A stretch of 64,000 nt of DNA from Eukaryota sp. GEM-RC1 (taxonomy: Eukaryota): contig JAUFOQ010000001.1 in the NCBI GenBank assembly GCA_040285855.1, forward strand, positions 3,472,001 through 3,536,000. Direction: 5' to 3'. The notes beneath the pieces are model-generated. The model saw nothing but the letters and a program-made list of their open reading frames with translations, made no database searches and was not told where the DNA came from. The translations under genes and the position numbers were made by a program. Below are positions 34,630 through 62,874 of the stretch, piece by piece; the first letter of the stretch is position 1, and each line of letters opens with the position of its first letter.

Positions 34630-35040
34630 TTGCCTGGATGCTAAAGTCAGATTGTTTACCTTAGTTGAAATTAGAACTAGAAGTACATGTATTATCTAAT
34701 CCCAAGTCTTCAGAGCCGAAACAAGTCTGTTACTTGCCCTTTTGTCAACGAACTTAAAGTTATTGAGTGTTAAGATTTAGATTTGTTTTTTGTCGAGGTT
34801 CAAGGACAGGTTGTAAACGAGTTAAAGAACGAAAATTCAAATGTATACTCAAAGGATAAGACCTACAAGCCGAACTCTAGTGCTCATTTCGAATTCAGTG
34901 TTATCAAAATCACAAAGTGTGTCAATATCAGCTGCCTTTTCAGCTCTGATAGAAGTCAAAATTCATTGAATGGAATGGTGTTTGCTGACGTGCTATTTTT
35001 GACCTGCTGAAAAAATTTGAAAGAACTTTGTCTATCTACA

Positions 35041-37946
35041 ATGCTTCATTTGGAATGCTCGATCTGCTCCTCAATCTTTGACAAGGCTTCCACGCTTCCT
35101 TGTGGTCACTGCTTTTGTCTCACGTGTATTTCTAAATGGCTAGAAGGGCACCGAAATTGTCCTAATTGTCGTAGACATGCCTCTATCAATGTTGTTGCTC
35201 CTTGTTATGCTCTCCGTGAAGCTGTTGACGCTTTTGTTAAGAATCCCGCCGCCCTACCCGAGATCTCCTCCGAAGACCTCAGTTTCAACCTCAACGATGA
35301 ATTGGGTAGTGGAATAAGCGGAACTGTTTATCTCTGTGAATGGGCTGACACCAATGTTGCTTTGAAGCTCGTCCGTAAAGCTGATCAGAATGAAGCAAGA
35401 CTCTTGCAGGAAGTCTCCCACATGGCCTCTTTGTCTCATCCTTTTGTCCTTCGAGTGTTTGGTATAACCAGACTTCCTAAGCACATTGGTATCTTGATGG
35501 AACTTGGTTCTGGACATTTACAAGTTCCAACATCTCTTGCTCCCACCACCCTTGCTCAAGCTATTGATATATGTACCGCTGTGAAGTACTTGCATTCCAA
35601 GGAAATTGTACACCATGACATTAAGCCTCAAAATGTAGTTATCGTAAACTCACAGGTCAAACTCGCCGATTTTGGTTCTTCACGGACCATGTACAACTAC
35701 ACCTCCACGCTCCAAGTAACTCCGAAGTACACTCCTCCAGAAGCTTTTAAGAAAATCTATGGACCAGCTTTCGACGTTTATAGTCTGGGAATATTGTTTT
35801 ATGAAATGTTTACCAATAGACTTGCTTTTGAAGGTATGCTTGTTTTTGAAGTAGTTGAGGCTAAACAAAATGAACATTTATTGAGCTTTCCTGATGGTTT
35901 TCCTGGGCAAATTTCATCGTTGATTAACAAATGTCTTTCAGTTAATCCTAATGAAAGACCTTGTATTAATGATGTACTGAAAGAGTTGAAAGAAATTCAA
36001 GGAACCATTGAGGTCTTTGAGTTGAACAATTCTCTAGAAAATGATCTTCAAATAGAAAAAAGTAATGATGAATTAGCTTTTGAAGGTTACCAAGAAGCTG
36101 CAGATCGAGGTGATGCTGAAGCCATGGTTAATATGGGTAACTGTTTTCTTAATGGTATTGGGGTAAGCAAGAACGAAAGACAAGCTCTTCACTGGTTCTT
36201 GGAAGCTTATTCTAAGGGAAACTTTAACGCAGGCACATACTTAGGGCAAACTGTTTTTGGTGTCAAAAACACGCAGAATTAGGTAATGAACTTGTAATGA
36301 AAGCTCTTGGTGATTGTTACAAAAGTGGACAAGGAATCCAAAAAGACCAATCGAAAGCTGTATACTGGTATCAAAAAGCGGCAGATTTGGGTAAATCTAG
36401 TGCCATGGTTAATCTTGGTATTTGTTACTACAATGGACAAGGAATCCAAAAAGACCAATCGAAGGCTGTATACTGGTATCAAAAAGCGGCAGATTTGGGT
36501 AAATCTAGTGCCATGGTTAATCTTGGTATTTGTTACTACAATGGACAAGGAATCCAAAAAGACCAATCGAAGGCTGTATACTGGTATCAAAAAGCGGCAG
36601 ATTTGGGTGAATCTAGTGCCATGGTTAATCTTGGTATTTGTTACTACAATGGACAAGGAATCCAAAAAGACCAATCGAAGGCTGTATACTGGTATCAAAA
36701 AGCGGCAGATTTGGGTGAATCTAGTGCCATGGTTAATCTTGGTATTTGTTACTGCAATGGACAAGGAATCCAAAAAGACCAATCGAAGGCTGTATACTGG
36801 TATCAAAAAGCGGCAGATTTGGGTGAATCTAGTGCCATGGTTAATCTTGGTATTTGTTACTACAATGGACAAGGAATCCAAACAGATCACGCAACAGCTG
36901 TGTACTGGTATCAAAAAGCGGCAGATTTGGGTTACTCTGGTGCCATGTCTAATCTTGGTGTTTGTTACGAAATTGGACAAGGAATTGAAAAAGATCACGC
37001 AACAGCTGTGTACTGGTATCAAAAAGCTGCAGATTTGAATCACACTGTTGCAATGAATAATCTTGGTTATTGTTACCAAAATGGACAAGGAATTGAAAAA
37101 GATCACGCCACAGCTGTGTACTGGTATCAAAAAGCGGCAGATTTGGGTTACTCTGGTGCCATGTCTAATCTTGGTGTTTGTTACAAAAATGGACAAGGAA
37201 TCCAAAAAGATCACTCAAAAGCTGTGTACTGGTATCAAAAAGCGGCAGATTTGGGCAACTCTTATGCCATGTATAATCTTGGTGTTTGTTACGAAATTGG
37301 ACAAGGAATTGAAAAAGATCACGCAACAGCTGTGTACTGGTATCAAAAAGCGGCAGATTTGGGTTACTCTGGTGCCATGTCTAATCTTGGTGTTTGTTAC
37401 AAAAATGGACAAGGAATCCAAAAGATCACTCAAAAGCTGTGTACTGGTATCAAAAAGCGGCAGATTTGGGCAACTCTTATGCCATGTATAATCTTGGTGT
37501 TTGTTACGAAATTGGACAAGGAATTGAAAAAGATCACGCAACAGCTGTGTACTGGTATCAAAAAGCGGCAGATTTGGGTAATTCTAGTGCCGTGAATAAT
37601 CTTGGTGTTTGTTACCAAAATGGACAAGGAATTGAAAAAGATCATTCAAAAGCTGTATACTGGTTTCCAAAAAGCGGCAGATTTGGGTGACTCTAATGCC
37701 ATGTATAATCTTGCACTTTGTTACGAAAATGGAGAAGGAATCCAAAAAGACCAATCAAAAACTGTGTACTGGTATCAAAAAGCTGCAGATTTGGGTCACT
37801 CTGATGCCATGTTTAATCTGGGTAATTGTTACGATAATGGAGAAGGAATTGAAAACGACCAATCAAAAGCTGTGTACTGGTATCAAAAAGCTGCAGATTT
37901 GGGTGACTCTGATGCTTTAAGGCAACTAGAACGATTATTGAGTTGA
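35041..37946 (+). CDS. RING finger-Ser/Thr kinase-Sel1 repeat protein, copy 2
   Basis: RING CSIC...PCGHCFCLTC...CPNC and kinase GSGISG, VALK, HHDIKPQN, DFG, TPPE. About 15 tandem 108-bp Sel1 repeats. Frameshifts near 36258, 37420 and 37668. Confidence 0.92.
36297..37915 (+). repeat. 108-bp coding tandem repeat (Sel1-like)
   Basis: Near-identical units such as AMVNLGICYYNGQGIQKDQSKAVYWYQKAADLGESS. Confidence 0.95.
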
Positions 37947-44404: not shown

Positions 44405-47400
44405 TCATCCTAATAGTCGTTCTAGTTGCCTTTGGGCTTTAGAGTCACCCAAATCTGCAGCTTTTTGACACCAGTACACCGCTTTTGAGTGATCTTTTGG
44501 ATTCCTTGTCCATTGTAGTAACTAGCACCAAGATTAAACATAGCATCAGAGTGACCCAAATCTGCAGCTTTTTGGAAACCAGTACACAGCTTTTGAGTGA
44601 TCTTTACGGATTCCTTGTCCATTGTAGTAACTAGCACCAAGATTAAACATAGCATCAGAGTGACCCAAATCTGCAGCTTTTTGGAAACCAGTACACAGCT
44701 TTTGAGTGATCTTTACGGATTCCTTGTCCATCGAAGCAACAAATACCAAGATTATTCATGGCACCAGAATTTCCCAAATCTGCAGCTTTTTGAAACCAGT
44801 ACACAGCTTTTGAGTGATCTTTACGGATTCCTTGTCCATTGTAGTAACTAGCACCAAGATTAAACATAGCATCAGAGTGACCCAAATCTGCAGCTTTTTG
44901 GAAACCAGTACACAGCTTTTGAGTGATCTTTACGGATTCCTTGTCCATCGAAGCAACAAATACCAAGATTATTCATGGCACCAGAATTTCCCAAATCTGC
45001 AGCTTTTTGATACCAGTACACAGCTGTTGCGTGATCTTTTTGGATTCCTTGTCCATTTTTGTAACAAAAACCAAGACTAATCATGGCACCAGAATTTCCC
45101 AAATCTGCAGCTTTTTGATACCAGTATACCGCTTTTGAGTGATCTTTTTGGATTCCTTGTCCATTGTAGTAACTAGCACCAAGATTAAACATAGCATCAG
45201 AGTGACCCAAATTGGCAGCTTTTTGATACCAGTAGGCAGCTTTTGAGTGATCTTTTGGATTCCTTGTCCATTCTCGTAACAAAAACCAAGAGTAAACATG
45301 GCATCAGAATTTCCCAAATCTGCAGCTTTTTGATACCAGTACACAGCTGTTGCATCATCTTTTTGGATTCCATTTTCGTAACAATCACCAAGATTATTCA
45401 TGGCAAAAGAATTTCCCAAATCTGCAGCTTTTTGATACCAGTACACAGCTTTTGAGTGATCTTTTGGATTCCTTGTCCATTTTCGTAACAATCACCAAGA
45501 TTATTCATGGCAAAAGAATTTCCCAAATCTGCAGCTTTTTGATACCAGTACACAGCTTTTGAGTGATCTTTTGGATTCCTTGTCCATTTTCGTAACAAAT
45601 ACCAAGATTATTCATGGCATTAGAATTTCCCAAATCTGTAGCTTTTTGATACCAGTACACAGCTGTTGCGTGATCTTTTGGATTCCTTGTCCATTTTCGT
45701 AACAATCACCAAGATTATTCATGGCACCAGAATTTTCCAAATCTGCAGCTTTTTGATACCAGTACACCGCTTTTGAGTGATCTTTTGGATTCCTTGTCCA
45801 TTTTCGTAACAAATACCAAGATTATTCATGGCATTAGAATTTCCCAAATCTGTAGCTTTTTGATACCAGTACACAGCTGTTACGTGATCTTTTTGGATTC
45901 CTTGTCCATTTTCGTAACAATCACCAAGATTATTCATGGCACCAGAATTTTCCAAATCTGCAGCTTTTTGATACCAGTACACCGCTTTTGAGTGATCTTT
46001 TGGATTCCTTGTCCATTTTCGTAACAATCACCAAGATTATTCATGGCACCAGAATTTTCCAAATCTGCAGCTTTTTGATACCAGTACACCGCTTTTGAGT
46101 GATCTTTTGGATTCCTTGTCCATTTTCGTAACAAATACCAAGATTATTCATGGCATTAGAATTTCCCAAATCTGTAGCTTTTTGATACCAGTAAACAGCT
46201 TTTGAGTGCTCCTTTTGGATTCCTTCTCCATTGTGGTAACAAACACCGAGATTATTCATTGCAACTGTTTTACCCAAATTGGCAGCCTGTTGATACCAGT
46301 AAACAGCTTTTGAGTGATTCTTTTGGATTCCTTCTCCATGGTGGTAACAAACACCCAAAGCAGTCATTGCAAGTTCATCGCCTATTTCTGCGTGTATTTG
46401 ACACCATTGAATAGTTTGCCCTAAGTTATTTCTCGCGTTAGAGTTTCCCTTATAAAGAGCTTCCAAGAACCAGTAAACAGCTTGTCTTTCGTTCTTGTTT
46501 ACCCCAATACCATTAAGAAAACAGTTACCCAGATTAACCATGGCTTCAGCATCACCTCGTTCTGCAGCTTCTTGGTAACCTTCAAAAGCTAATTCATCAT
46601 TACTTTTTTCTATTTGAAAATCATTTTCTATAGTATTGTTCAACTCAAAGACTTCAATGGTTCCTTGAATTTCTTTCAACTCTTTCAGTACATCATTAAT
46701 AGAAGGTCTTTCACTAGGATTAACTGAAAGACATTTGTTAATCAAGGTTAAAATTGGCACAGGAAAACCATCAGGAATGCTCAATAAATGTTCTTTTGTT
46801 TAGCCTCAACTACTTCAAAAACTGACATACTTTCAAAGGCAAGTCTATTGGTAAACATTTCATAAAACAATATTCCCAGACTATAAACGTCGAAAGCTGG
46901 TCCATATTTTTTACTGAAAGCTTCTGGAGGAGTGTACTTCGGAGTTACTTGGAGCGTGGAGGTGTAGTTGTACATGGCCCGTGAAGAACCAAAATCGGCG
47001 AGTTTGACCTGTGAATTTACGATAATGACATTTTGGGGCTTAATGTCATGGTGGACAATTTCCTTGGAATGCAAGTACTTCACAGCGGTACATATATCAA
47101 TAGCTTGAGCAAGGGTGGTGGGAGAAAGAGATGTTGGAACTTGTAAATGTCCAGAACCAAGTTCCATCAAGATACCAATGTGCTTCGGAAGTCTGGTTAT
47201 ACCAAACACTCGAAGGACAAAAGGATGAGACAGAGAGGCCATGTGGGAGACTTCCTGCAAGAGTCTTGCTTCATTCTGATCAGCTTTACGAACGAGTTTC
47301 AAAGCAACTTTGGCGTCAGCCCATTCACAGAGATAAACAGTTCCGCTAATTCCACTACCCAATTCATCGTTGAGGTTGAAACTGAGGTCTTCAGACAGTA

Positions 47401-47623
47401 TCTCGGGAAGGGCGGCGGGATTCTTGACAAAAGCGTCAACAGCTTCACGGAGAGCATAGCTAGGGGCAACATCATTGATAGAGGCTTGCTTACGACAATT
47501 AGGACAATTTTGGTGTGCTTCTAGCCATTCAGAAATACACGTGAGACAAAAACAGTGACCACAGGGCAGTGTGGAAGCTTTGTCAAAGGTTGAGGTGCAG
47601 ATCGAGCAATCTAAATGAAGCAT
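44405..47623 (-). CDS. RING finger-Ser/Thr kinase-Sel1 repeat protein, copy 3 (many apparent frameshifts)
   Basis: Same architecture as copy 2. About 18 Sel1 units ending KAQRQLERLLG*. Repeated 1-nt indels in A/T runs. Confidence 0.88.
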
Positions 47624-48099
47624 TATAGAGATGAGAGAAAGATTCACTAAATTTGTGTTAGCTCAAAACTGTCACGTGGCATCTATATATACATTATACA
47701 CCATGTCCATTGTTTGAATAGATACTTCAAGAAAAAACATCGAGGGTTTTGACCTTGGGAATCAACAGCAATTGTTGTCAAGATCCACTTGTCACTGGAT
47801 GGTGAGTCTACAACAGTTTTTGGAAAGTCTTGACGCTGATGTTTGGTCGTCACTCGTTCCTGTTTGTCAGATTCCTCAATGAAGTGTTTTTTCTCTTCCA
47901 ATGTGTGTTTATCAACTACAGAAAAAATTCATCAGTAATCACGGAAGCTTGGATTTTCAAAATCGTATTAGCTCAGCTAAAACTTATCGTCTCGCTTTTT
48001 TGTCTTTCTTGATGGATGTTTCTAGCGATTGTGCTTGAGCGCTGGTTATTCGTCAGACAATTTTGTTTTAATCTAGAAGATCATGAATGACTGATATAC

Positions 48100-48923: not shown

Positions 48924-51900
48924 CTAATTACCATAGAGAAAATCAAACATCGACTTGAATACATTTTCTCCTAAATCCAATTCAACATCAATGTCATCAA
49001 CTCTAATACAAAGCTTACCAGTACCTAGAACGTCAGTTGCTGAACCATAGTTTAACAGAGGAACTACTGCACCAAGCTTAGGAATCTTCTCAAGAAGATC
49101 AGTTGAAACTACTAAAGCTGCAGCACAAACAACAACACGAATAGAAGTTTCATCAAGTAAAACAGTTTGTTCACCCAAATGTTTAAAATAATGAGGAATT
49201 TCAGAAAATGATGAAAAAGTACATCCAAGTTTTGATACAACTAACGAATCACGAGTATTTGAATTCGTTTTTAAAATATCCAATAATTCACAATCACTGG
49301 TCTCAACAAATACTTCAATTAAATCACCTGGAACCAATCCCAATGTTTTCCTCATCTTTTGAACAACAGCAACTACTTCCCGAACCTTTCTCAACTCCAA
49401 TAACTCAGGAGTAACAGACAGATTCAACAAAACAAGAGAGCCTTCATCTCCTGGCATTGCCTCGTAAAACTGACTACTACTCTGCTTAAAAGAACGTACA
49501 AGAATCAAATCATTAGGAGTGAAAGTGAATCCACCCAATTCAATCATTCCTTGATCTCTACAACGATTGATGTCGTCATGAGTCATTTGAGAGACAATCT
49601 TTCCAGCTTCCTTCATTTTTTTGCCTAGTTTGGGTCCTAATGCTTTAAAGTTAGCATTAGCAGACAGAATAACGTAATCAGCTTCATTGGAAGTTGCAAT
49701 AACGGAAACCAATGACGTTTCTGATTTAATATAAGGAGCAGTAGTTTCAATGTCAGAAATATAGGTAGGGTCACTATGGATAACTACTACTTCTGATAAT
49801 GGTTGTTTAACAGGAAGCTTATTTCGATCTCTCATAGTCCTAATCTTAACCACAACGTCCTGCATTCTAGACACCATTCGTTCAACTTCTAAGTGTTGGG
49901 CCTGTTCTTGAGGCTTAGGGAAAGACAAGAAGTGAACAGAAAGCTCATGGATTTCAGTAGTTATATACTTGTTCAGTCGATGATAGATATGTTCAGTCAT
50001 GAAGCATGCAAAAGGAGCCATACAGAGGTTGAACTGGTACAAAACATGGAATAAAGTTTGGAGGGCAGCTACAGAGTCAGCTTCACCCAACAAACCCTTA
50101 AGTCTATCTCTATTCAATCTAACGTACCAATTAGATAGATCTTGAATGAACTCTAACATTTTAGGTACAACTGAGTAGACTCTATAGTTTTCCATTTCAG
50201 TCTGGACAACCTCAACTAATGAATTAAGAGAAGAAATGATCCACTTATCAAAGATATTGTCAGAAGCCAAAGCTTTAGTGGTTTCAGGAATAAACTTTTC
50301 AAACTTTGCTTCATAACGATCAATATTTTGGAGTAAAAAGTTGAACGTGTTGTACCAGGGAATTAACACGTCCCTAACAATTCCTTCAACTCCGTCTTTT
50401 CTAAATCTAAAGCTTTCTCCTCTCATTACTTGAGAATTGATCAAGTAAAGTCTTAGAGCATCGGCTCCGTGGTCCTCAATTACTAACATAGGATCAGGAT
50501 AATTTTTTAATCTTTTAGACATCTTTCTTCCATCAGGAGCTAAGATTAAACCAGTAACTACCAAGTTCTTAAAGGCGGGAGAGTCAAAAGAGCGGTAGAT
50601 AGCACTAACATGGTGTAGAACCATCCACGTGTTTGGTCAAGTGCTTCAGCTACGAAGTCTGCAGGGAAAGAGTTCATAAATAACTCTGGATTGGTGAAAG
50701 GATAATGCTGAGAAGCATATGGCATAGAACCAGACTCGAACCAACAATCAAATACTTCAGGAATTCTTTTGAGAGGCTCACCATTGGGATTCTTTGATGG
50801 AATGATGATGTCATCAACGTGATCACGATGAAGGTCAGAAATACGTGTACCACTGAGCTCTTCTAAATGATCAACTGATGACACGACAACAATTTCAGAA
50901 AAGTCAGAATTAGACCATATTGGAATAGGAGTCCCAAAGAATCTCGACCTACTAATAGCCCAATCACGAGAATCACGTAACCAATTATGAAACCTTCCTT
51001 CTTGAATATTCTCAGGAACCCACTTACTCTTGAGATTATTCACTAAAAGTCTCTCCTTAAGTTCTGTAACCTTGACAAACCAAGAAGGTACAGCTCTGTA
51101 TAATAGAGGAGTATCAGATCTCCAACAGAAGGGATAAGAATGTTTAACAACAGACTTACTCCAGAGACGGTTGTTGGCTTTCAACTCAGCAATGATTGCA
51201 GCATCAGCGTCCTTCACGTATTGACCTGCATACGTGGCAACTTCCTTAGTGAAATTACCAGCACCATCAATAGGACAGACCGGGGGGTTACCTGGGGATA
51301 CTATCTTGTACAAATCACCAACACGGGCATCGTCTTCACCAAAACCAGGAGCACAATGAACAACACCAGTACCAGTTTCAGAAGTAACAAAAGTATCACA
51401 AACAATAATAAAGGAGTTTGGACGATCCTTGAAGAAAGTAAAGAGAGGAACGTAAGAGAGACCTTTGAGATTCGAACCTGGGAAAGTAGCTTCAATCTCA
51501 TAGGGAAGTTCTGGTTGTTCACCTTTCTTTTCTTAATTGGAGGAAACAACGCATCAACACGAGACTGTGCGACAATGAGCTTCTTACCAGTTTCCTTGAC
51601 AACAAGTCTAACGTAGTCAAACTCAGGATGTACTACAAGAGCAAGGTTAGAGGGGAGAGTCCAGGGAGTGGTAGTCCAAGCAACAAGAGAGACATCGGGC
51701 TGATCTACTAGGGGGAAGGTGATGAATATGGCGGGATCGCTGACGTCCTTGTAGTTCTGATTGGCTTCAAAGTTGGAAAGGGAAGTCTGGAGACCAGTAG
51801 ACCAAGGCATGACCTTAGTACCACGGTAAACGAGATCCTTTTCCCATAGCTGAGAGAAGACATACCAGACAGACTCCATGTAACTGGGGTCCATGGTCTT

Positions 51901-52405
51901 GTAGTCGTCTTTAAACTCGATCCAACGTCCGATACGGGAGATGACGTGTTCCCATTCTTCACGGCAGCGCATAACAATGGATCGGCAAATGTTGTTGTAG
52001 TTTCCAATACCCATGGCTTGTACATCGGCTTCTCCGTGGATACCGTGGAGTTTGTCAACTTCGTGCTATGATTAGAAGGATGAGAAGGGGGCAATACCTC
52101 AATAGGAAGACCGTGTGTGTCCCAGCCAAATCTACGAGGAATATGGTGGCCTTTCATGGTAAAGAATCTAACGACAACATCCTGCAATAAGCGAAACAGG
52201 ATGAACAAACTTTAAGGATAGAGATCAAGATATGTCCATAATGAGGAGTTCCAGTAGCAAAAGGGGGTCCATCATAAAAGCGATATTCAGGGAGATCTTT
52301 GGTCTTTTCTAGGAGAGTATGAAAGGCATCAATTTCATCCCAATACTTTAAGATGTCATTCTCAGAGGGCAGGGAAGTCATTTTATTGAGAGAAAAAGTT
52401 TTCAT
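48924..52405 (-). CDS. IARS1: Isoleucine-tRNA ligase, cytosolic type
   Basis: [45 protein letters not shown] and KMSKR. Introns 52182-52210 and 52066-52097. Several apparent frameshifts. Confidence 0.95.
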
Positions 52406-57008: not shown

Positions 57009-57303
57009 TTGTAGTGAATCCTGGAACAACTTGAGCTTCTCTATTTTAGAATGAATGTGAATACAGAAATTTTAGAATATTTTAAAGCAAATGGATACTT
57101 AGTAAGTTTGTGTTGAGATTTCATTTAATAAATAGTTCTCGTTGAGATGGCTTACTGTGCATGGTCATTCTAATGTTGATTTAACACTTTATTCATGAAC
57201 AATAAGTTGTTGAAGATGTACTGTAGTTAATAGCATTAAGTCGATGTCATAGATGCCAGGCTTATTGATGAGCTTGTATCAATCCTAAAAGAAAGGGTGA
57301 AAT

Positions 57304-57827
57304 TTAGAAGAACTTACAGGGGTCGGTCTTGCCACAAACTGTACATAAACCTTTTGAATATCTACCTTGGGGTACATGGGAGACATCATATCTTCCATCC
57401 AAGAACTTCCAGGATTGGCGTTTGGCCCAAGATTCACACTGCTTATAGGAACCAGCATACCCAAAGTTACAAGTACCATCATTACAAATACACCGACGGA
57501 CGGGAAACATGATTTTCTCATTTGTTTGGATTCCCAAAATGGCTTCTGATAGACTGTTTTCAAAGACTTTGGCTGCAGAAGTTTCAGAGTTGAGGCTGTT
57601 AATGCTATCAGCGCAAAGGGAACAACCACCACTACTGAATGAACTACGGGCAAAAAGGTACACATTACGTCAGGTGATGCCTTAATATTGTTTGCAGTCT
57701 TCTGACACCAGCAGTGACAGTCCGCTTGGGTTTTAGAATATCCAGACCCACAAGGCCATGGACATCGGCATCCAGCATTTGTGAGAACAAGAACCAGCGA
57801 AATTAAAAGAGCGACAGTGAACGTCAT
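57304..57827 (-). CDS. Small secreted cysteine-rich protein with two internal Cys modules
   Basis: Signal peptide MTFTVALLISLVLVLTNA, then CRCPWPCG...CHCWC...CSLC and CICNDGTC...CESW...CTVC. Frameshift near 57655. Confidence 0.6.
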
Positions 57828-59108
57828 CGGAATGTGAAGAAGTGGATTATGATCAATCTTATGCATTTTTATGTTTGTACTTGTAACCACAAGCAAGAGA
57901 TTGTGTTGTTACAAAGGTCGGTATTGCTGCTGTTGCAACCATATGGTTCGATGTCAGAAAAAACAATTAATGGGACATTTTCTATCTGACAGGAAGGTCA
58001 TTGTTATTAACCACCAAACTCCTGGTAGGTGGGTGCTGAACCTCTGAATTTTAGTTTCTTAAAATCTCAAATTATCAAGTGAGTTCTTGGCTTATCAAGT
58101 GAGTTCATGTTCATCACTACACAAAAGATGAGTTGGAGTACATCAACAATGCTGTTATTGGTCCACACTATCTTAAAAATGCAAAGATTTCCAATACGGT
58201 TTGTTCTTCAAAGATCCATCTGCTGGTAGAATCTTAAACACAAGAATTGGAGGTATTACCCTAGTTTTGTGATTATGTGATTAGAAATCATCCAATTTGC
58301 AGAATCAAATGTGATTTGTCAAGACTTGAAATGTAGACTGTTGTTCAACCACTACTAATACAACAGAATTTCAATCTCAAATTTATCTGGGTAAGTCAAG
58401 CTGGTTAACTGTTTCTCTGACACAATAAAAGATCTCTATCTTTCATTTCAAACCATCTATAGATTCAGATGAATGTAAAAAGGCTGAAGCTATAAAACAA
58501 GTCTTTTAGTTTGTCTAATAAATATTTTGTAGAATGTAAATAAATATTGTTTAGACAAATAAGCATACGTCGACTGGGAATTCCTTATTGATGATGCTTT
58601 ATTTTGTTCATAAAGTCAAGCCACTTATGTCAGTCTATTGTCCCTATTTAATGTTGTTTAGTTGTGTCACGTGTAACATCACATTTAGTCATTTGTCTGT
58701 GAGAAATTAACCTAAATGAAAGTGATATATGGGTTCTGAATTGTGGTTACTGACTATTATTGCTTTCTATATGTTCAAGTGATAGTACTGTAGCTTATTG
58801 TAGAATTGTTCTTTTTACTTCAATCTTTTCTTTCCTACATAAATCGTAGCAGGTTTTCTCTTATTAAGCATCACAAAACAACCATTAAAATATACGATAT
58901 AAATTTATCAAACGTAACTAACAATACTATATCCCCCATCACTCTTGCAAACATCACATCCAAAAAATTCGAATCCTTAAATCCAATCCCACAACAATAC
59001 ACACACATCAATTCACGAAACTCATCCAATATTCCAAAACACTGTTCATCACAAATCAATTCATGATTTGATATCTAGTTTCGACATAACAAAAGTATTG
59101 GTTAAGAA

Positions 59109-59843
59109 CATAGTTGCGAATCACAAATTTTTGTGATGTGATTTTGTGATGTGATTGTTGTGACTCACAAAATCACAAAGGCATCCATTTGTGATGTGAA
59201 ATTGTGATTGCTGTGATTTCCAATATCACAAAGTAAACAATTTGTGATTTTGTGATGTGATTGTTGTGATATGTAATTTCTTAGATTTTACATTACCATG
59301 TGTTTATTACTATCATAAACAATGTTACGTACAAGAATTCGGATCACCAACTTATGAGATAGAAGTAAATTTAACATCGGAACTGAAAAAACAATTATTG
59401 TTTTTTTTAAAAAACAAATGTCTTAATATTTTCCATCTATCTTAGACTCCATGGAAGAACATAACTAGCTTACATCCGAAAACTTCCTTAAGTAACTTCC
59501 TTTGGGACACGATTGGAGAGTTACGAAATCTGATAGCCCATTTGGAAAGTCAACAATATGAACTTCATATTATGAAGCACTTTGATTCTATTACTCAAAG
59601 GTCGGATTTGGAATATTATCGGACCTTACTACTAAAAACTCCAAAGGTCTTCCAGCGTGAAATTCAGCGTAAGAACAAGACACTTGCTTCAGTTTTTACA
59701 TTTCATTAACTTTCCAGACTATTTTTTGTTCAATCATTGTGATGTTGTGATGTTAAATCACAAATATCACAAAAATATTACTTGTGATGTGATTATTGTG
59801 ACTCACAAAATCACAAATTCAAATTTTGTGATTCGCAACTATG
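59109..59843. mobile_element. Non-autonomous hAT-type element
   Basis: Perfect 19-bp TIR catagttgcgaatcacaaa, 8-bp TSD GTTAAGAA, tgtgat subterminal repeats. Confidence 0.92.
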
Positions 59844-59907
59844 GTTAAGAACAAAACATTGAAGTACAGTGTACTTGTCCCTATCATTTAAATGAAAACT
59901 CAAAATT

Positions 59908-60190
59908 TTGACCATTCAAGGTCACGGTAGACCTACCATCCTCGAGAGACCAAAATATCAAACAGTACCTGTCGTGGATGGCGGGAAGACAGATCCAATT
60001 CCTAAGAAAATGACTGTAAGTAAGGGTAAGGGTAAGGCAAAGCGTCCTCTAACAACTATGAGAGGTCCTAACAGATGTCGTATATGTTCTCAACCTGGTC
60101 ATAACATAACAACTTGTCCTAAGGGTCCTAAGGTTTTGCGAATTAGGACAATTATTTGTCAAACTGCGGATTTGCTCATGAGCAACAATA
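59908..60190 (+). pseudogene. 3' remnant of a second Fanzor copy (C-terminal tail plus CCHC knuckle)
   Basis: TIQGHGRPTILERPKYQT...CRICSQPGHNITTC aligns with TINGQGRPSALERSKTQT...CGNCGQEGHNKRSC at 62380-62613. Confidence 0.8.
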
Positions 60191-62780
60191 GTTTTCATTT
60201 TGGGTGAATATCCCCATTTTACCAATTCCCCCACACACCCAATTCCCACAACCTCTTTTTACTTATGGGATACACTTTTGAGATACTCTGGGACTCAAGA
60301 CTCGACTTAACGAGCATGTCTGTCCACGCTTCTGGACACGATTTCCAAAAATCTTCAAGACTAGAAATGAACGAAAAAGAAAAAATTGCATTTCAGTACT
60401 TGAACAACTTTTCTCCACTGCTACAACAGTTGTCTGATGAAATTGGAACAAATCAAATTTCTTTTCCTGATTCTACGTCAATGTCTCCCATATTTCATTA
60501 CACTGCCAAACAAATTTCTACAAATTATGCCAACAATATGGTCAAAAATTTTCATGATTATGTATTCAGATTCTTTAATCTGGTAAAAAGAAAGAAAGTA
60601 AGACTTGAACAAATAAGTGATCAAGTTGATAAGAAAGAATTGATTTCGAAATTGAATTCAGTCAGAGATTCGATTATCAATGGAAATTTTGATGAAATTC
60701 CCATTAATAATCACAAGATCTTCCCTTATCCACTTGAAGAATTAACATTGAGGTTTTTTGCGTATTTGAAATTTTCTTTGTTTCCAATGTTTTCAAAAAG
60801 AACATTTACTATTTACAGAAAGTAAAGCCGATGCAGTTAATTTCTCATGCTCTATACATCAACCGAACAATACAATCTTTGTGTTTGGTTGATGGAAAAC
60901 CAATCAGTGTAAACAATCCTTTTCCAATGACGAAGACATTGATTCCCCAGCATATTCGTTTGGACACTGATTGGATTAATCAAAGATTTGTCCATATATG
61001 TCGTGGCAAAAAAGCAGATGAAATAAGGAAAAAGGTTTTTGATCAGGTCCTTACTGACAAAGCTGTGGCACCAACAAAATCATTTGTCTTTAGATATTCT
61101 TCAATTCTGACTGATGGAATTTCTTGTTTGGTTTTAATGAGGAAAGATTTAGTTGATGAAGATGGAAATACTTTCAAAGATTTTACTGCTAAATCTCTCG
61201 GAACTTCGGAAAGATACATTCACTCTTTATCAAATGAGAATATTCACGAATTACAATTGAAAGAAAAAAAGAATTGTCGGTGTCGATCCCAATGAATATG
61301 ATTTAATGTATTGTGTTTCTGAAAAGACAGTCGATGAGCTTAAAGAAGAAGATATTTCTGGAAATAATCCACTCAAAAACGATTACCCTCAGAAATCAGA
61401 AGTAAGAAAAGAGGAGGAATTAAGAAAAGAAAGAAACAATTACAAGATTGGAAAAATTCGAATAATGATGTAAAATCAAAGAAAAAGGCTAAGCACAAAT
61501 GGAAGAAGTTTAATTACACAGCTGGAGAAAGAGCTTATGATAGGAAATCTAAAAAATATTGTAAATCTGAAAATAGAAAACTGAAAGAATTTTCTATCGA
61601 ATCACCAGATGAAACTGTCACTGAAAGACAACTTAAAGATTTTTTGGTTCTTCGTCCTGATAATATTCTTGTAACAGGAAGAGATGTCGTTAACCAATTT
61701 TCCAATGCTGTATCAAATGGGGAAAGAAAGTCGTGTTTCAGTGACACATTTGAAACATATATTAAAGAAGCTGAACGATATAACGTATATTTGAGTTTTT
61801 TTTACGAAGATGACTGGTTTAGAAAGAGGAAATTCCAAATTTATTCAAATAACCAACAATCGGAGAAAAACATGCTGGAACGCTTCAATTTAACATATGG
61901 ACCTCCAGAAGACGTCATCATTGGCTATGGGGATTGGAGCTCAAAAGGTAAAACAAGAAAGGGTAAAACCTCAACGGTTAGAGGAGTGGAAATCCGTAAA
62001 ATGTTAAGAAGATATGGATACCAAATATTTCTTGTTGATGAATACAGAACAAGCAAGTGTTGTTCCAAATGTGCTGAGGAAAAATCAACTTTCGTAGAAT
62101 GTGAAAATGTTTCAGAACTAAAGGTTCTTGGTCCCAAAGGTAAGAGACAGCTAAGAAGGACGAAGAGAAATTTAAGAAGAGAAATTTTGCTCGAAAACAA
62201 ACAAGATCCTCTAAACCAACGGGATTTTGGAAGCAGAGTGGGAGGTGAAGCAGAAGTCATTGGAAGAAGAAGCTAAATCCACACCCTGGGGACTGGTAAG
62301 GTGCTCAGATGCTGAGTGTGGTACTTATTGGAATAGAGACCTAAATTCTGCCATTAATATCTATTCCATCATTGAAGCAACGATCAATGGTCAAGGTAGG
62401 CCATCCGCTCTCGAGAGATCTAAAACTCAAACAACAGATCTCGAGAGTGGTAAGGATACTTTGGCGAGAGACCAGAAGGAGAAGACTGTGACCAAGAAGG
62501 AGAAAACTTCAACAGGAAAGAAGAAGACTGTGACCGGAAAGAACAAAACTTCAACAGGAAAGAAGAAAACATGTGGAAATTGTGGCCAAGAAGGTCATAA
62601 CAAAAGGTCATGCAAGAATCCACCAAAAGAAATGAGTTCGCCTAAAAGAAGAAGCGTAATGTCAGTCCAGCAGACGAATGTCTCTCGTAAAGAACTTTAG
62701 TGTACTCTTAACAGTACGCAGCGAAGTGGGCTTAGCTCACTGAGTGTCTGTGGTTTCGATACTCTAATCAAAATGAAAAT
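60191..62780 (+). mobile_element. Fanzor-carrying element with short imperfect inverted ends
   Basis: ta|gttttcattttg at 60189-60202 and caaaatgaaaat|ta at 62769-62782. The 11-bp core is perfect. No transposase inside. Confidence 0.6.
60265..62700 (+). CDS. Fanzor (Fanzor1-like TnpB homolog), about 810 aa over five reading segments
   Basis: NIYY..K..P, PQHIRLDT and ILTDGISC. RuvC-I IVGVDPN (D at 61285). IIGYGDWS. RuvC-II plus zinc finger LVDEYRTSKCCSKC (E at 62040). RCSDAEC...WNRDLNSAINI (D at 62338). Frameshifts near 60785, 61270, 61435 and 62225. Confidence 0.9.
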
Positions 62781-62800
62781 TAACAAAGTTGTGTACTTTG
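62700..62800 (+). ncRNA. Candidate Fanzor omegaRNA (scaffold about 62700-62780, putative guide from about 62781)
   Basis: Three consecutive hairpins with G-U pairs favouring the + strand: gtgtact/agtacgc 62700-62719, agtgggc/gctcact 62725-62741 and gagtgtc/gatactc 62742-62764. They end next to the right inverted end. Confidence 0.65.
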
Positions 62801-62874
62801 GGAATACTAGTATCCATTTGAGTTGAGAACCACAGTAGTGAAAATGTATCAAGTTAATGATAAAGTTAGAAACA

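Follow-up and report, generated by a model that had tools for sequence, protein, structure and literature searches.

A 5'-truncated, frameshifted and probably inactive Fanzor1 copy in Eukaryota sp. GEM-RC1 and its multicopy relatives in skoliomonads

The best match in both sequence and fold to the locus described here is SpuFz1 from Spizellomyces punctatus (8GKH, 9CEU-9CEZ; PMC10432273), which likewise occurs in multiple copies including partial ones. Fanzor1 genes are found in non-autonomous Helitron, MuDR, Mariner, Sola and IS4-like elements (PMC3627910), and the Fanzor1 elements compiled by Bao and Jurka in 2013 in the same source have their motif spacing and the existence of Fanzor-only copies in common with the locus described here. 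The SpuFz1 RNA lies after the stop codon and other OMEGA RNAs overlap the reading frame. For OMEGA systems, cutting of empty sites has been proposed to restore the element (PMC13565253). Here we report on a Fanzor1 locus on the plus strand, at positions 60340-62700 of a 64,000-nucleotide stretch from Eukaryota sp. GEM-RC1 (GenBank assembly GCA_040285855.1, contig JAUFOQ010000001.1, positions 3,472,001 to 3,536,000), hereafter called the window; the genome is that of a eukaryote, compact and with short introns. The locus is most likely an inactive relic: a member of a multicopy Fanzor1 family, 5'-truncated and frameshifted, in which the RuvC triad is kept and the front of the protein lost.

Domain order, catalytic triad, the spacing between the RuvC-II glutamate and the zinc finger, and a DPN motif are shared with SpuFz1. 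In contrast to SpuFz1, about 90 residues at the front of the protein have no counterpart in the window copy, which carries two basic insertions, one behind RuvC-I and one within the finger, as well as a tail of 100 residues with a CCHC zinc knuckle; no terminal inverted repeats were found around it. PpFz1 (9CF0-9CF3) and GtFz1 (9CER-9CET) were the next-best sequence and fold matches, at about 15% structural identity, and neither is known to possess a knuckle or an exonuclease. The shifted RuvC-II glutamate is also shared with Fanzor2 and IS607 TnpB (ApmFz2, 9B0L), but the fold match to these is far weaker, and the size and REC insertion fit Fanzor1.

Fanzor1 identity and extent of the gene

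The window was scanned in six frames with a profile of 64 Fanzor1-type reference proteins (665 positions). Five segments matched in order, with E-values of 2e-13, 1e-21, 4e-7, 1e-57 and 2e-19, and together covered profile positions 84-659. The motifs listed by an earlier sequence-only reading, which had proposed a Fanzor1 with an intact RuvC triad, were all recovered on the plus strand in Fanzor order and spread over the five segments: PQHIRLDT (60945), TDG (61110), GVDPN (61279-61293), GYGDW (61923-61937), VDEYRTSKCCSKC (62034-62072), RCSDAEC (62299-62319) and WNRDLN (62329-62346). The split D-E-D triad is kept, with codons at 61285, 62040 and 62338 in three separate frame segments, the C4 zinc finger is intact, and all catalytic and zinc-binding residues are retained. 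The RuvC-II glutamate stands six residues ahead of the finger (E-YRTSKC-CSKC), an arrangement described as a Fanzor signature by Yoon et al., who also named the DP motif of RuvC-I DPG; it reads DPN in the window copy, as in SpuFz1 and in 38 of the 64 reference proteins (a whole-sequence count). The Bao-Jurka motif D-X(125,275)-[TS][TS]-XX-C4-X(5,50)-RD was likewise found, with a spacing of 254 residues.

Segment 4, the largest, which also carries a lineage-specific helical insertion, matched the Fanzors in the PDB (SpuFz1 E 6e-9, PpFz1 1e-7, GtFz1 9e-4), and a search with it returned 1179 cluster representatives at E ≤0.001. An NCBIfam scan yielded no match above the cut-off. The relatives referred to below by P-numbers are GenBank predicted gene models, available without their DNA and all labelled "hypothetical protein". 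For the fold comparison, the AlphaFold model of one of them, the sister protein P0187 (pLDDT 80), was used in place of the window copy's own protein; it matched SpuFz1 at E 1e-16, with the next non-Fanzor at 2e-3 and ApmFz2 at 0.03. The RuvC fold expected by the sequence-only reading is thus backed by profile matches in all five segments and by the sister model, and PDB matches, profile, fold and triad residues agree on a Fanzor1. The profile, the fold of the sister model and a tree that has no named reference rows all place the gene nearer to Fanzor1 than to Fanzor2 or TnpB. Its extent differs from the start at 60191 and the roughly 810 residues first proposed, as the Fanzor part runs from 60340 to the stop codon at 62698-62700 and comprises 785 codons. 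The tail of segment 5 is about 100 residues long and K/T-rich; a Pfam match to Cas12f1-like_TNB (E 1e-4) remained below the cut-off. All features of the locus and its surroundings are collected in Table 1.

Table 1. Features of the Fanzor1 locus and its flanks (positions within the window)
Feature	Position	Strand	Description
MITE target-site duplications	59101..59108, 59844..59851		identical 8 bp, GTTAAGAA
MITE	59109..59843		735 bp, non-autonomous; 14-bp perfect terminal inverted repeats; TGTGA-rich subterminal repeats
Family-B Fanzor1 3' remnant	59911..60132	+	77-82% amino acid identity over 74 residues to family-B proteins (P0033/P0187)
Tail-stem copy in family-B remnant	59936..59981	+	10 of 12 pairs kept; z -1.6
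Spacer	60133..60339	+	unrelated to Fanzor; in-frame TGA at 60205-60207; includes the earlier proposed start 60191
Segment 1	60340..60790	+	shortened REC, opens abruptly at DFQKSS; profile 84-192; 91-97% to P0196-P0198
Break 1 (-1)	60754..60799	+	within T6/T4/A5 runs; exact site not pinned
Segment 2	60795..61266	+	REC/WED second half, PQHIRLDT, TDG; profile 222-374; 95% to P0198
Break 2 (+1 or -2)	61264..61270	+	A7 run; P0198 has the same wrong-frame end NCRCRSQ
Segment 3	61273..61377	+	RuvC-I, GVDPN, catalytic Asp 61285
Break 3 (-1)	61376..61380	+	A5 run; P0176 in one frame, reads ...NNPLKKRLPSEIRSKK
Segment 4	61380..62228	+	RuvC helices, GYGDW, Glu 62040, first CxxC; 94-97% to P0027, P0176, P0177
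Break 4 (+1)	62225..62230	+	surplus base at about 62229, in TTTTGG
Segment 5	62230..62700	+	second Cys pair, RuvC-III Asp 62338, GRP motif, stop; 96% to P0176
Tail stem, candidate guide-scaffold part	62405..62450	+	12-bp RNA stem in coding tail; z -5.1, 0 of 200 shuffles, as best of 33 sliding windows
C-terminal CCHC zinc knuckle	62572..62613	+	CGNCGQEGHNKRSC; Pfam zf-CCHC E 0.048
3' flank, candidate guide RNA and right end	62701..62856	+	two 7-bp hairpins; z -2.3, 5 of 200 shuffles

Missing front end and frame breaks

All three matches obtained in a search with segment 1 (P0196, P0197 and P0198) align to the window only from position 60340 onwards, at 91-97% identity, and extend upstream of the equivalent position by 109, 67 and 160 residues, respectively, which the window lacks. 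No credible tblastn match to these residues was found in the 64 kb (one alignment of E 0.03 lies at 8.3 kb on the other strand), and profile positions 1-83, where the first strand of WED and the leading helices of REC lie, gave no credible match in six frames (the nearest reached E 1.4 at best). The N-terminal WED strand and REC helices that a functional Fanzor1 is expected to have in full are thus not complete here, and a missing N-terminal WED strand is what the sequence-only reading had named as the mark of a dead copy. The window sequence MSPIFHY (60481), ahead of which only 47 residues remain, aligns via P0012 with about Q129-N133 of SpuFz1 (with a numbering offset inferred from the length of the maltose-binding protein fusion). 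In SpuFz1, H21, T22 and K25 touch the guide-target duplex and R96 reads the target-adjacent motif (TAM) (PMC10432273). By analogy, the lost part would begin with the first strand of WED and extend through REC helices to about R96, and the product, deprived of these contacts, presumably could not form a normal R-loop. The suggestion that polishing would reveal a live nuclease thus is not supported for the window copy, since foreign sequence stands where the 5' end should be and polishing would not bring that end back.

Downstream of this junction, the gene is not one continuous reading frame but is interrupted by four breaks in the assembled sequence, and the paralogues divide these into two kinds. 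At break 1, P0198 is in frame, P0196 has the same wrong-frame end and P0197 continues in the third frame, while break 3 is in frame in the only paralogue spanning it. Because a paralogue reads through each of them, breaks 1 and 3 plausibly represent homopolymer noise, as do two one-base losses in another gene of the window, whose motifs suggest an isoleucyl-tRNA synthetase (IleRS). By contrast, break 2 is in frame in none of the one paralogue spanning its site and break 4 in none of four: P0027, P0028 and P0177 share the wrong-frame end peptide and P0176 is bridged by a predicted intron. As they recur in every paralogue spanning them, breaks 2 and 4 would reflect either a systematic error or an inherited lesion. 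For break 1, we considered a programmed -1 frameshift and rejected it, as no canonical slippery heptamer was visible by eye and P0198 reads through.

The earlier attribution of all four frameshifts to assembly errors is consequently plausible for breaks 1 and 3, while breaks 2 and 4 recur in paralogues. The positions given for them also needed adjustment: the third break lies not at 61435 but in the A5 run at 61376-61380, where P0176 is in frame; the fourth, given as 62225, is close to the surplus base at about 62229; and the first, given as 60785, can be placed only to 60754-60799. Of the supposedly similar breaks in the IleRS-like gene, two are indeed one-base losses (~51530 and ~50588), which sit in short runs, but two others are GT-AG introns of about 31 nt. 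The losses amount to two in about 3.3 kb of that gene versus four breaks in 2.4 kb of the Fanzor.

Could the locus encode a live nuclease damaged only by assembly, with four basecalling errors and a misjoin in place of the 5' end? All four breaks touch runs of at least four equal bases (such runs make up 16% of the locus), breaks 1 and 3 each have a paralogue that reads through, and a single T run gives three frames among the copies. For the named relatives, the assemblies derive from MinION reads called with Albacore and corrected with Nanopolish and Illumina data (10.1101/2023.05.03.539051), and gene models of a second GEM-RC1 family, family B, break repeatedly at A runs. Indel errors, however, cannot delete at least 200 codons, and the DNA upstream consists of other elements in order, with a clean target-site duplication. 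Moreover, a T6 run at 61640 (in the same GATTTTTTGG context) and a T8 run at 61796 are in frame in the window, so that an undercall of two bases at break 4 becomes less likely. We therefore regard damage by assembly alone as very unlikely.

Breaks 2 and 4 could instead be true inherited insertions of a dead subfamily, here termed family A with the window copy, that spread passively with RuvC-III out of frame. Break 4 is present in the window and in all four paralogues spanning it, break 2 in the single one, homologues align gap-free at both sites only with one base removed at each, and at break 4 the conserved Phe is kept only if the base removed is a G. Against this, a systematic error tied to sequence context would turn up in every copy of a repeat that resists polishing: in the P0034 cluster of family B, four of the five listed members have the same break, and other family-B copies read through. 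A dead subfamily is a serious possibility, to which we give somewhat less than even weight; it concerns the family rather than the window copy and is compatible with the latter being a relic. A different account of break 4 is that it is real and rescued by splicing of 62140-62236, which would drop a lineage-specific insertion and restore the usual finger spacing. P0176 is annotated in this manner with an intron of the same 97 nt, the ends read GTAAGA...GCAG, and the removed part is an insertion relative to the profile, but five host introns of about 30-56 nt have a CTNAY-like branch motif by the 3' AG that is absent here, three other paralogues are not so annotated, and comparable skips in P0029 and P0193 look like patches of the predictor. 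Rescue by splicing is thus very unlikely.

For the window copy itself, we return to the reading as a truncated relic. Where at least two paralogues agree (377 columns), it shows 10 private changes, including R>C and S>F, and its 785 codons contain no in-frame stop. The few private changes and the lack of a stop fit a young relic and do not show selection. Some points weigh against a relic: the frame is free of stops and the catalytic and zinc-binding residues are all kept, although with about 20 changes only about one stop would be expected under neutrality, so that this counts weakly; the junction at 60340 could be a misassembly; and no transposase is linked to the locus.

Skoliomonad Fanzor1 families and their additional domains

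The closest relatives of the window copy are gene models from GEM-RC1, TZLM1-RC and TZLM3-RCL, soda-lake protists that belong to the skoliomonads, which are free-living anaerobic metamonads. The paralogues of 91-97% identity point to the same lineage for the window; the placement in an unstudied protist lineage by the sequence-only reading is hence borne out. Family A comprises seven GEM-RC1 models among the clusters listed (P0027, P0028, P0176, P0177 and P0196-P0198), and family B, also from Eukaryota sp. GEM-RC1, comprises the P0033 cluster (26 members) and the P0034 cluster (5 members). Further relatives are P0030-P0032 from GEM-RC1 and P0029 from TZLM1-RC. Two families of predicted proteins derive from TZLM3-RCL (P0001-P0012, P0015, P0016 and P0019-P0026), one with the P0012 cluster (12 members), the other with the P0015 and P0016 clusters (6 and 4 members). 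In a FastTree phylogeny of 62 rows (34 references of at least 600 residues, P0017, P0018, 20 locus open reading frames and six skoliomonad representatives; SH-like support without bootstrap or named reference rows), the six representatives formed one side of a branch with support 100. Families A and B grouped with support 94, and the two TZLM3-RCL families grouped with P0030 with support 96.

Some variation within the families was noted. The window copy and P0177 lack 29 residues (at 61635-61640) found in P0176 and P0027, so that family A has at least two length variants. Many models of the P0033 cluster are C-terminal only (260, 155 and 138 residues), and all three of its 644-residue models begin at the position homologous to break 1, by recurrent errors or frequent 5' truncation. 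A metagenome scan yielded 94 relatives, of which the best 80 were retained, and two viral scans yielded 0 and 8 loci, giving 88 loci in total; family-A DNA was not found among the best 80 of the 94 metagenome relatives (top segment identity ≤54%). L080, L074, L046, L068, L054, L063 and their kin are divergent Fanzor-like metagenome reading frames of 730-890 residues on long branches. Our literature search found no Fanzor paper on Metamonada; supplementary tables of the surveys, which lay outside the search, may list metamonad matches.

The families differ in the domains added to the Fanzor core. In families A and B and in P0029, the protein closes with a K/T-rich tail that bears a CCHC knuckle, a pattern found in none of the 64 reference Fanzor1 proteins. 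The two TZLM3-RCL families, which share about 35% identity, have no knuckle and instead open with a PolB-type 3'-5' exonuclease domain (PF03104), above the Pfam cut-off with E 4e-16 to 8e-13 in P0001, P0010, P0016 and P0023. The ExoI DxE, ExoII NxxxFD and ExoIII YxxxD motifs are present in these relatives. The domain is collinear between the two families and stops about 25 residues ahead of the WED strand. Nine of the 22 TZLM3-RCL models keep ExoI-III together with all three RuvC motifs, and nine of the 22 carry a 2A-like D(V/I)ExNPGP sequence, a skip motif known from non-LTR retrotransposons (PMC3708506). As the same junction recurs at many loci in two distant families, an artefact of the gene predictor is unlikely. 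P0020 and P0010 have adjacent locus tags, and copies of the two families may lie side by side.

In the AlphaFold model of P0001, the Fanzor part is confident and matches SpuFz1 (E 5e-18, TM 0.71 by target), and the exonuclease part is mostly at pLDDT <50, so that this domain is not modelled with confidence. The ESM Atlas provided clusters for the exonuclease at 0.83, which we treat only as a lead, and no usable match for the whole of P0023. Neither exonuclease, knuckle nor 2A motif was present in any reading frame of the 88 metagenome and viral loci, and no six-frame match to the exonuclease or the 2A-like motif was found in the window, whose copy is 5'-truncated. The literature, with supplements and subscription papers outside our search, contained no report of a knuckle-tailed Fanzor or a natural Fanzor-exonuclease fusion, and the word "exonuclease" is absent from the main texts of PMC10432273, PMC10530073, 10.1101/2023.08.09.552727, PMC3627910 and PMC13565253. 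According to PMC10530073 (fig. S1B), Fanzors often carry other domains, and that figure may already cover exonuclease fusions.

Taken together, we propose, at close to but not quite even confidence, that skoliomonads harbour an undescribed Fanzor1 clade fused to a complete PolB-type exonuclease behind a 2A motif, with a CCHC knuckle in the sister branch. Such a fusion would make an RNA-guided cut and then trim the ends it had produced, thereby steering repair, and complete members of family A may carry both additions.

Surroundings of the locus and its possible biology

Upstream of the truncated gene lies mobile debris that the sequence-only reading had overlooked, as it had the C-terminal knuckle and the exonuclease-fused sister families. 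A miniature inverted-repeat transposable element (MITE), presumably hAT-like given its 8-bp target-site duplication, closes upstream of the gene; the Fanzor profile has no match inside it, and no inverted repeat brackets the Fanzor gene within the window. The MITE occurs as one copy in the window; for an 87-codon frame inside it (59446-59709), nothing in Pfam exceeded the cut-off. It is followed by a family-B remnant, cut at both ends, which consists of the TIQG-GRP tail and a CCHC knuckle (60076-60117; Pfam zf-CCHC_2 E 1e-5, below the cut-off), and whose reading frame is ended by the TGA at 60205. The spacer matched neither the three family-A N-terminal paralogues nor any stored protein, and its fold z was -0.8. 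As the upstream knuckle frame runs into segment 1 in frame except for this one TGA, a domesticated, N-terminally shortened protein with knuckles at both ends, starting from the ATG at 60009 or 60265, could be imagined. The upstream frame is, however, the tail of the other family (82% identity), the spacer matches nothing and four breaks follow, which makes domestication extremely improbable. An intron across the TGA was ruled out by eye, with no AG in frame.

Two parts of the 3' end may, as candidates, contribute guide RNA: the stem in the coding tail and the 3' flank, which is followed by a host flavodoxin gene (Flavodoxin_1 E 1e-16). Covariation between the tail stem and its copy in the family-B remnant amounts to two double changes on two sequences, a value reached by 114 of 500 shuffles and thus not significant, and the flanks of the two tails show no similarity (122 of 300 shuffles scored as high). 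The peptide of the homologue P0029 permits 12 of 12 stem pairs in a best-case back-translation, versus none of 60 random peptide pairs. The 3' end gave no Rfam match apart from one at chance level (E 0.5). A candidate Helitron-like CTAG end with a weak hairpin was seen at 62807-62810.

Elsewhere in the window, an uninterrupted Mutator-like element (MULE) transposase frame (14562-16595; Pfam MULE E 1e-20) ends in a CCHC knuckle that resembles the Fanzor tails (match to the P0029 tail, E 2e-9), which makes it a possible mover or knuckle donor, although this is only a lead. A frame at 19616-20236 ends in what we take to be a motif like the hAT transposase dimerisation region, without support from Pfam. 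Three paralogous RING-kinase-Sel1-repeat genes (2-1174, 35011-37943 and 44875-47662) show one-base breaks in two of them. Host introns of about 30-56 nt with a branch motif beside the 3' AG occur in the IleRS-like (48927-52381), the presumed RPL12-like and the DJ-1 genes. A Cys-rich frame on the minus strand (57288-57908) has a weak Pfam Resistin match (E 0.001, below the cut-off), probably by chance.

In the scenario that we favour, a recently spread Fanzor1 element would have lost its left part among other mobile debris, and the catalytic residues would have been kept because the copy is young, with no working nuclease made. Complete members of the family would, by analogy with described systems, likely be RNA-guided DNA endonucleases that help a mobile element to persist: they would bind an RNA derived from the 3' end, recognise a short TAM and cleave sites that the element has left empty, favouring its restoration. 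The guide RNA would derive from 62405-62450 and/or 62701-62856 and its spacer from the flanking DNA, the knuckle may serve as an additional nucleic-acid grip, and movement would depend on an enzyme supplied in trans. The relic itself may still supply putative guide RNA to complete copies. As to the host element, the MULE-like knuckle, together with the 2A motif and the exonuclease found in the sisters, offers leads toward a DNA transposon or a retroelement.

As far as its sequence tells, the locus holds a gene of a known kind in an inactive copy, new in its tail and in its host lineage, and with its front end gone it is unsuitable as a new editor. It points, instead, to several multicopy Fanzor1 families in Metamonada, among which the nine TZLM3-RCL models that keep every exonuclease and RuvC motif lend themselves directly to functional study. 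If the proposed activity is true, the fused enzyme would be a natural version of engineered nuclease-exonuclease fusions, and these relatives bear on the ends and the repair of RNA-guided breaks as well as on the role of Fanzors in mobile elements.

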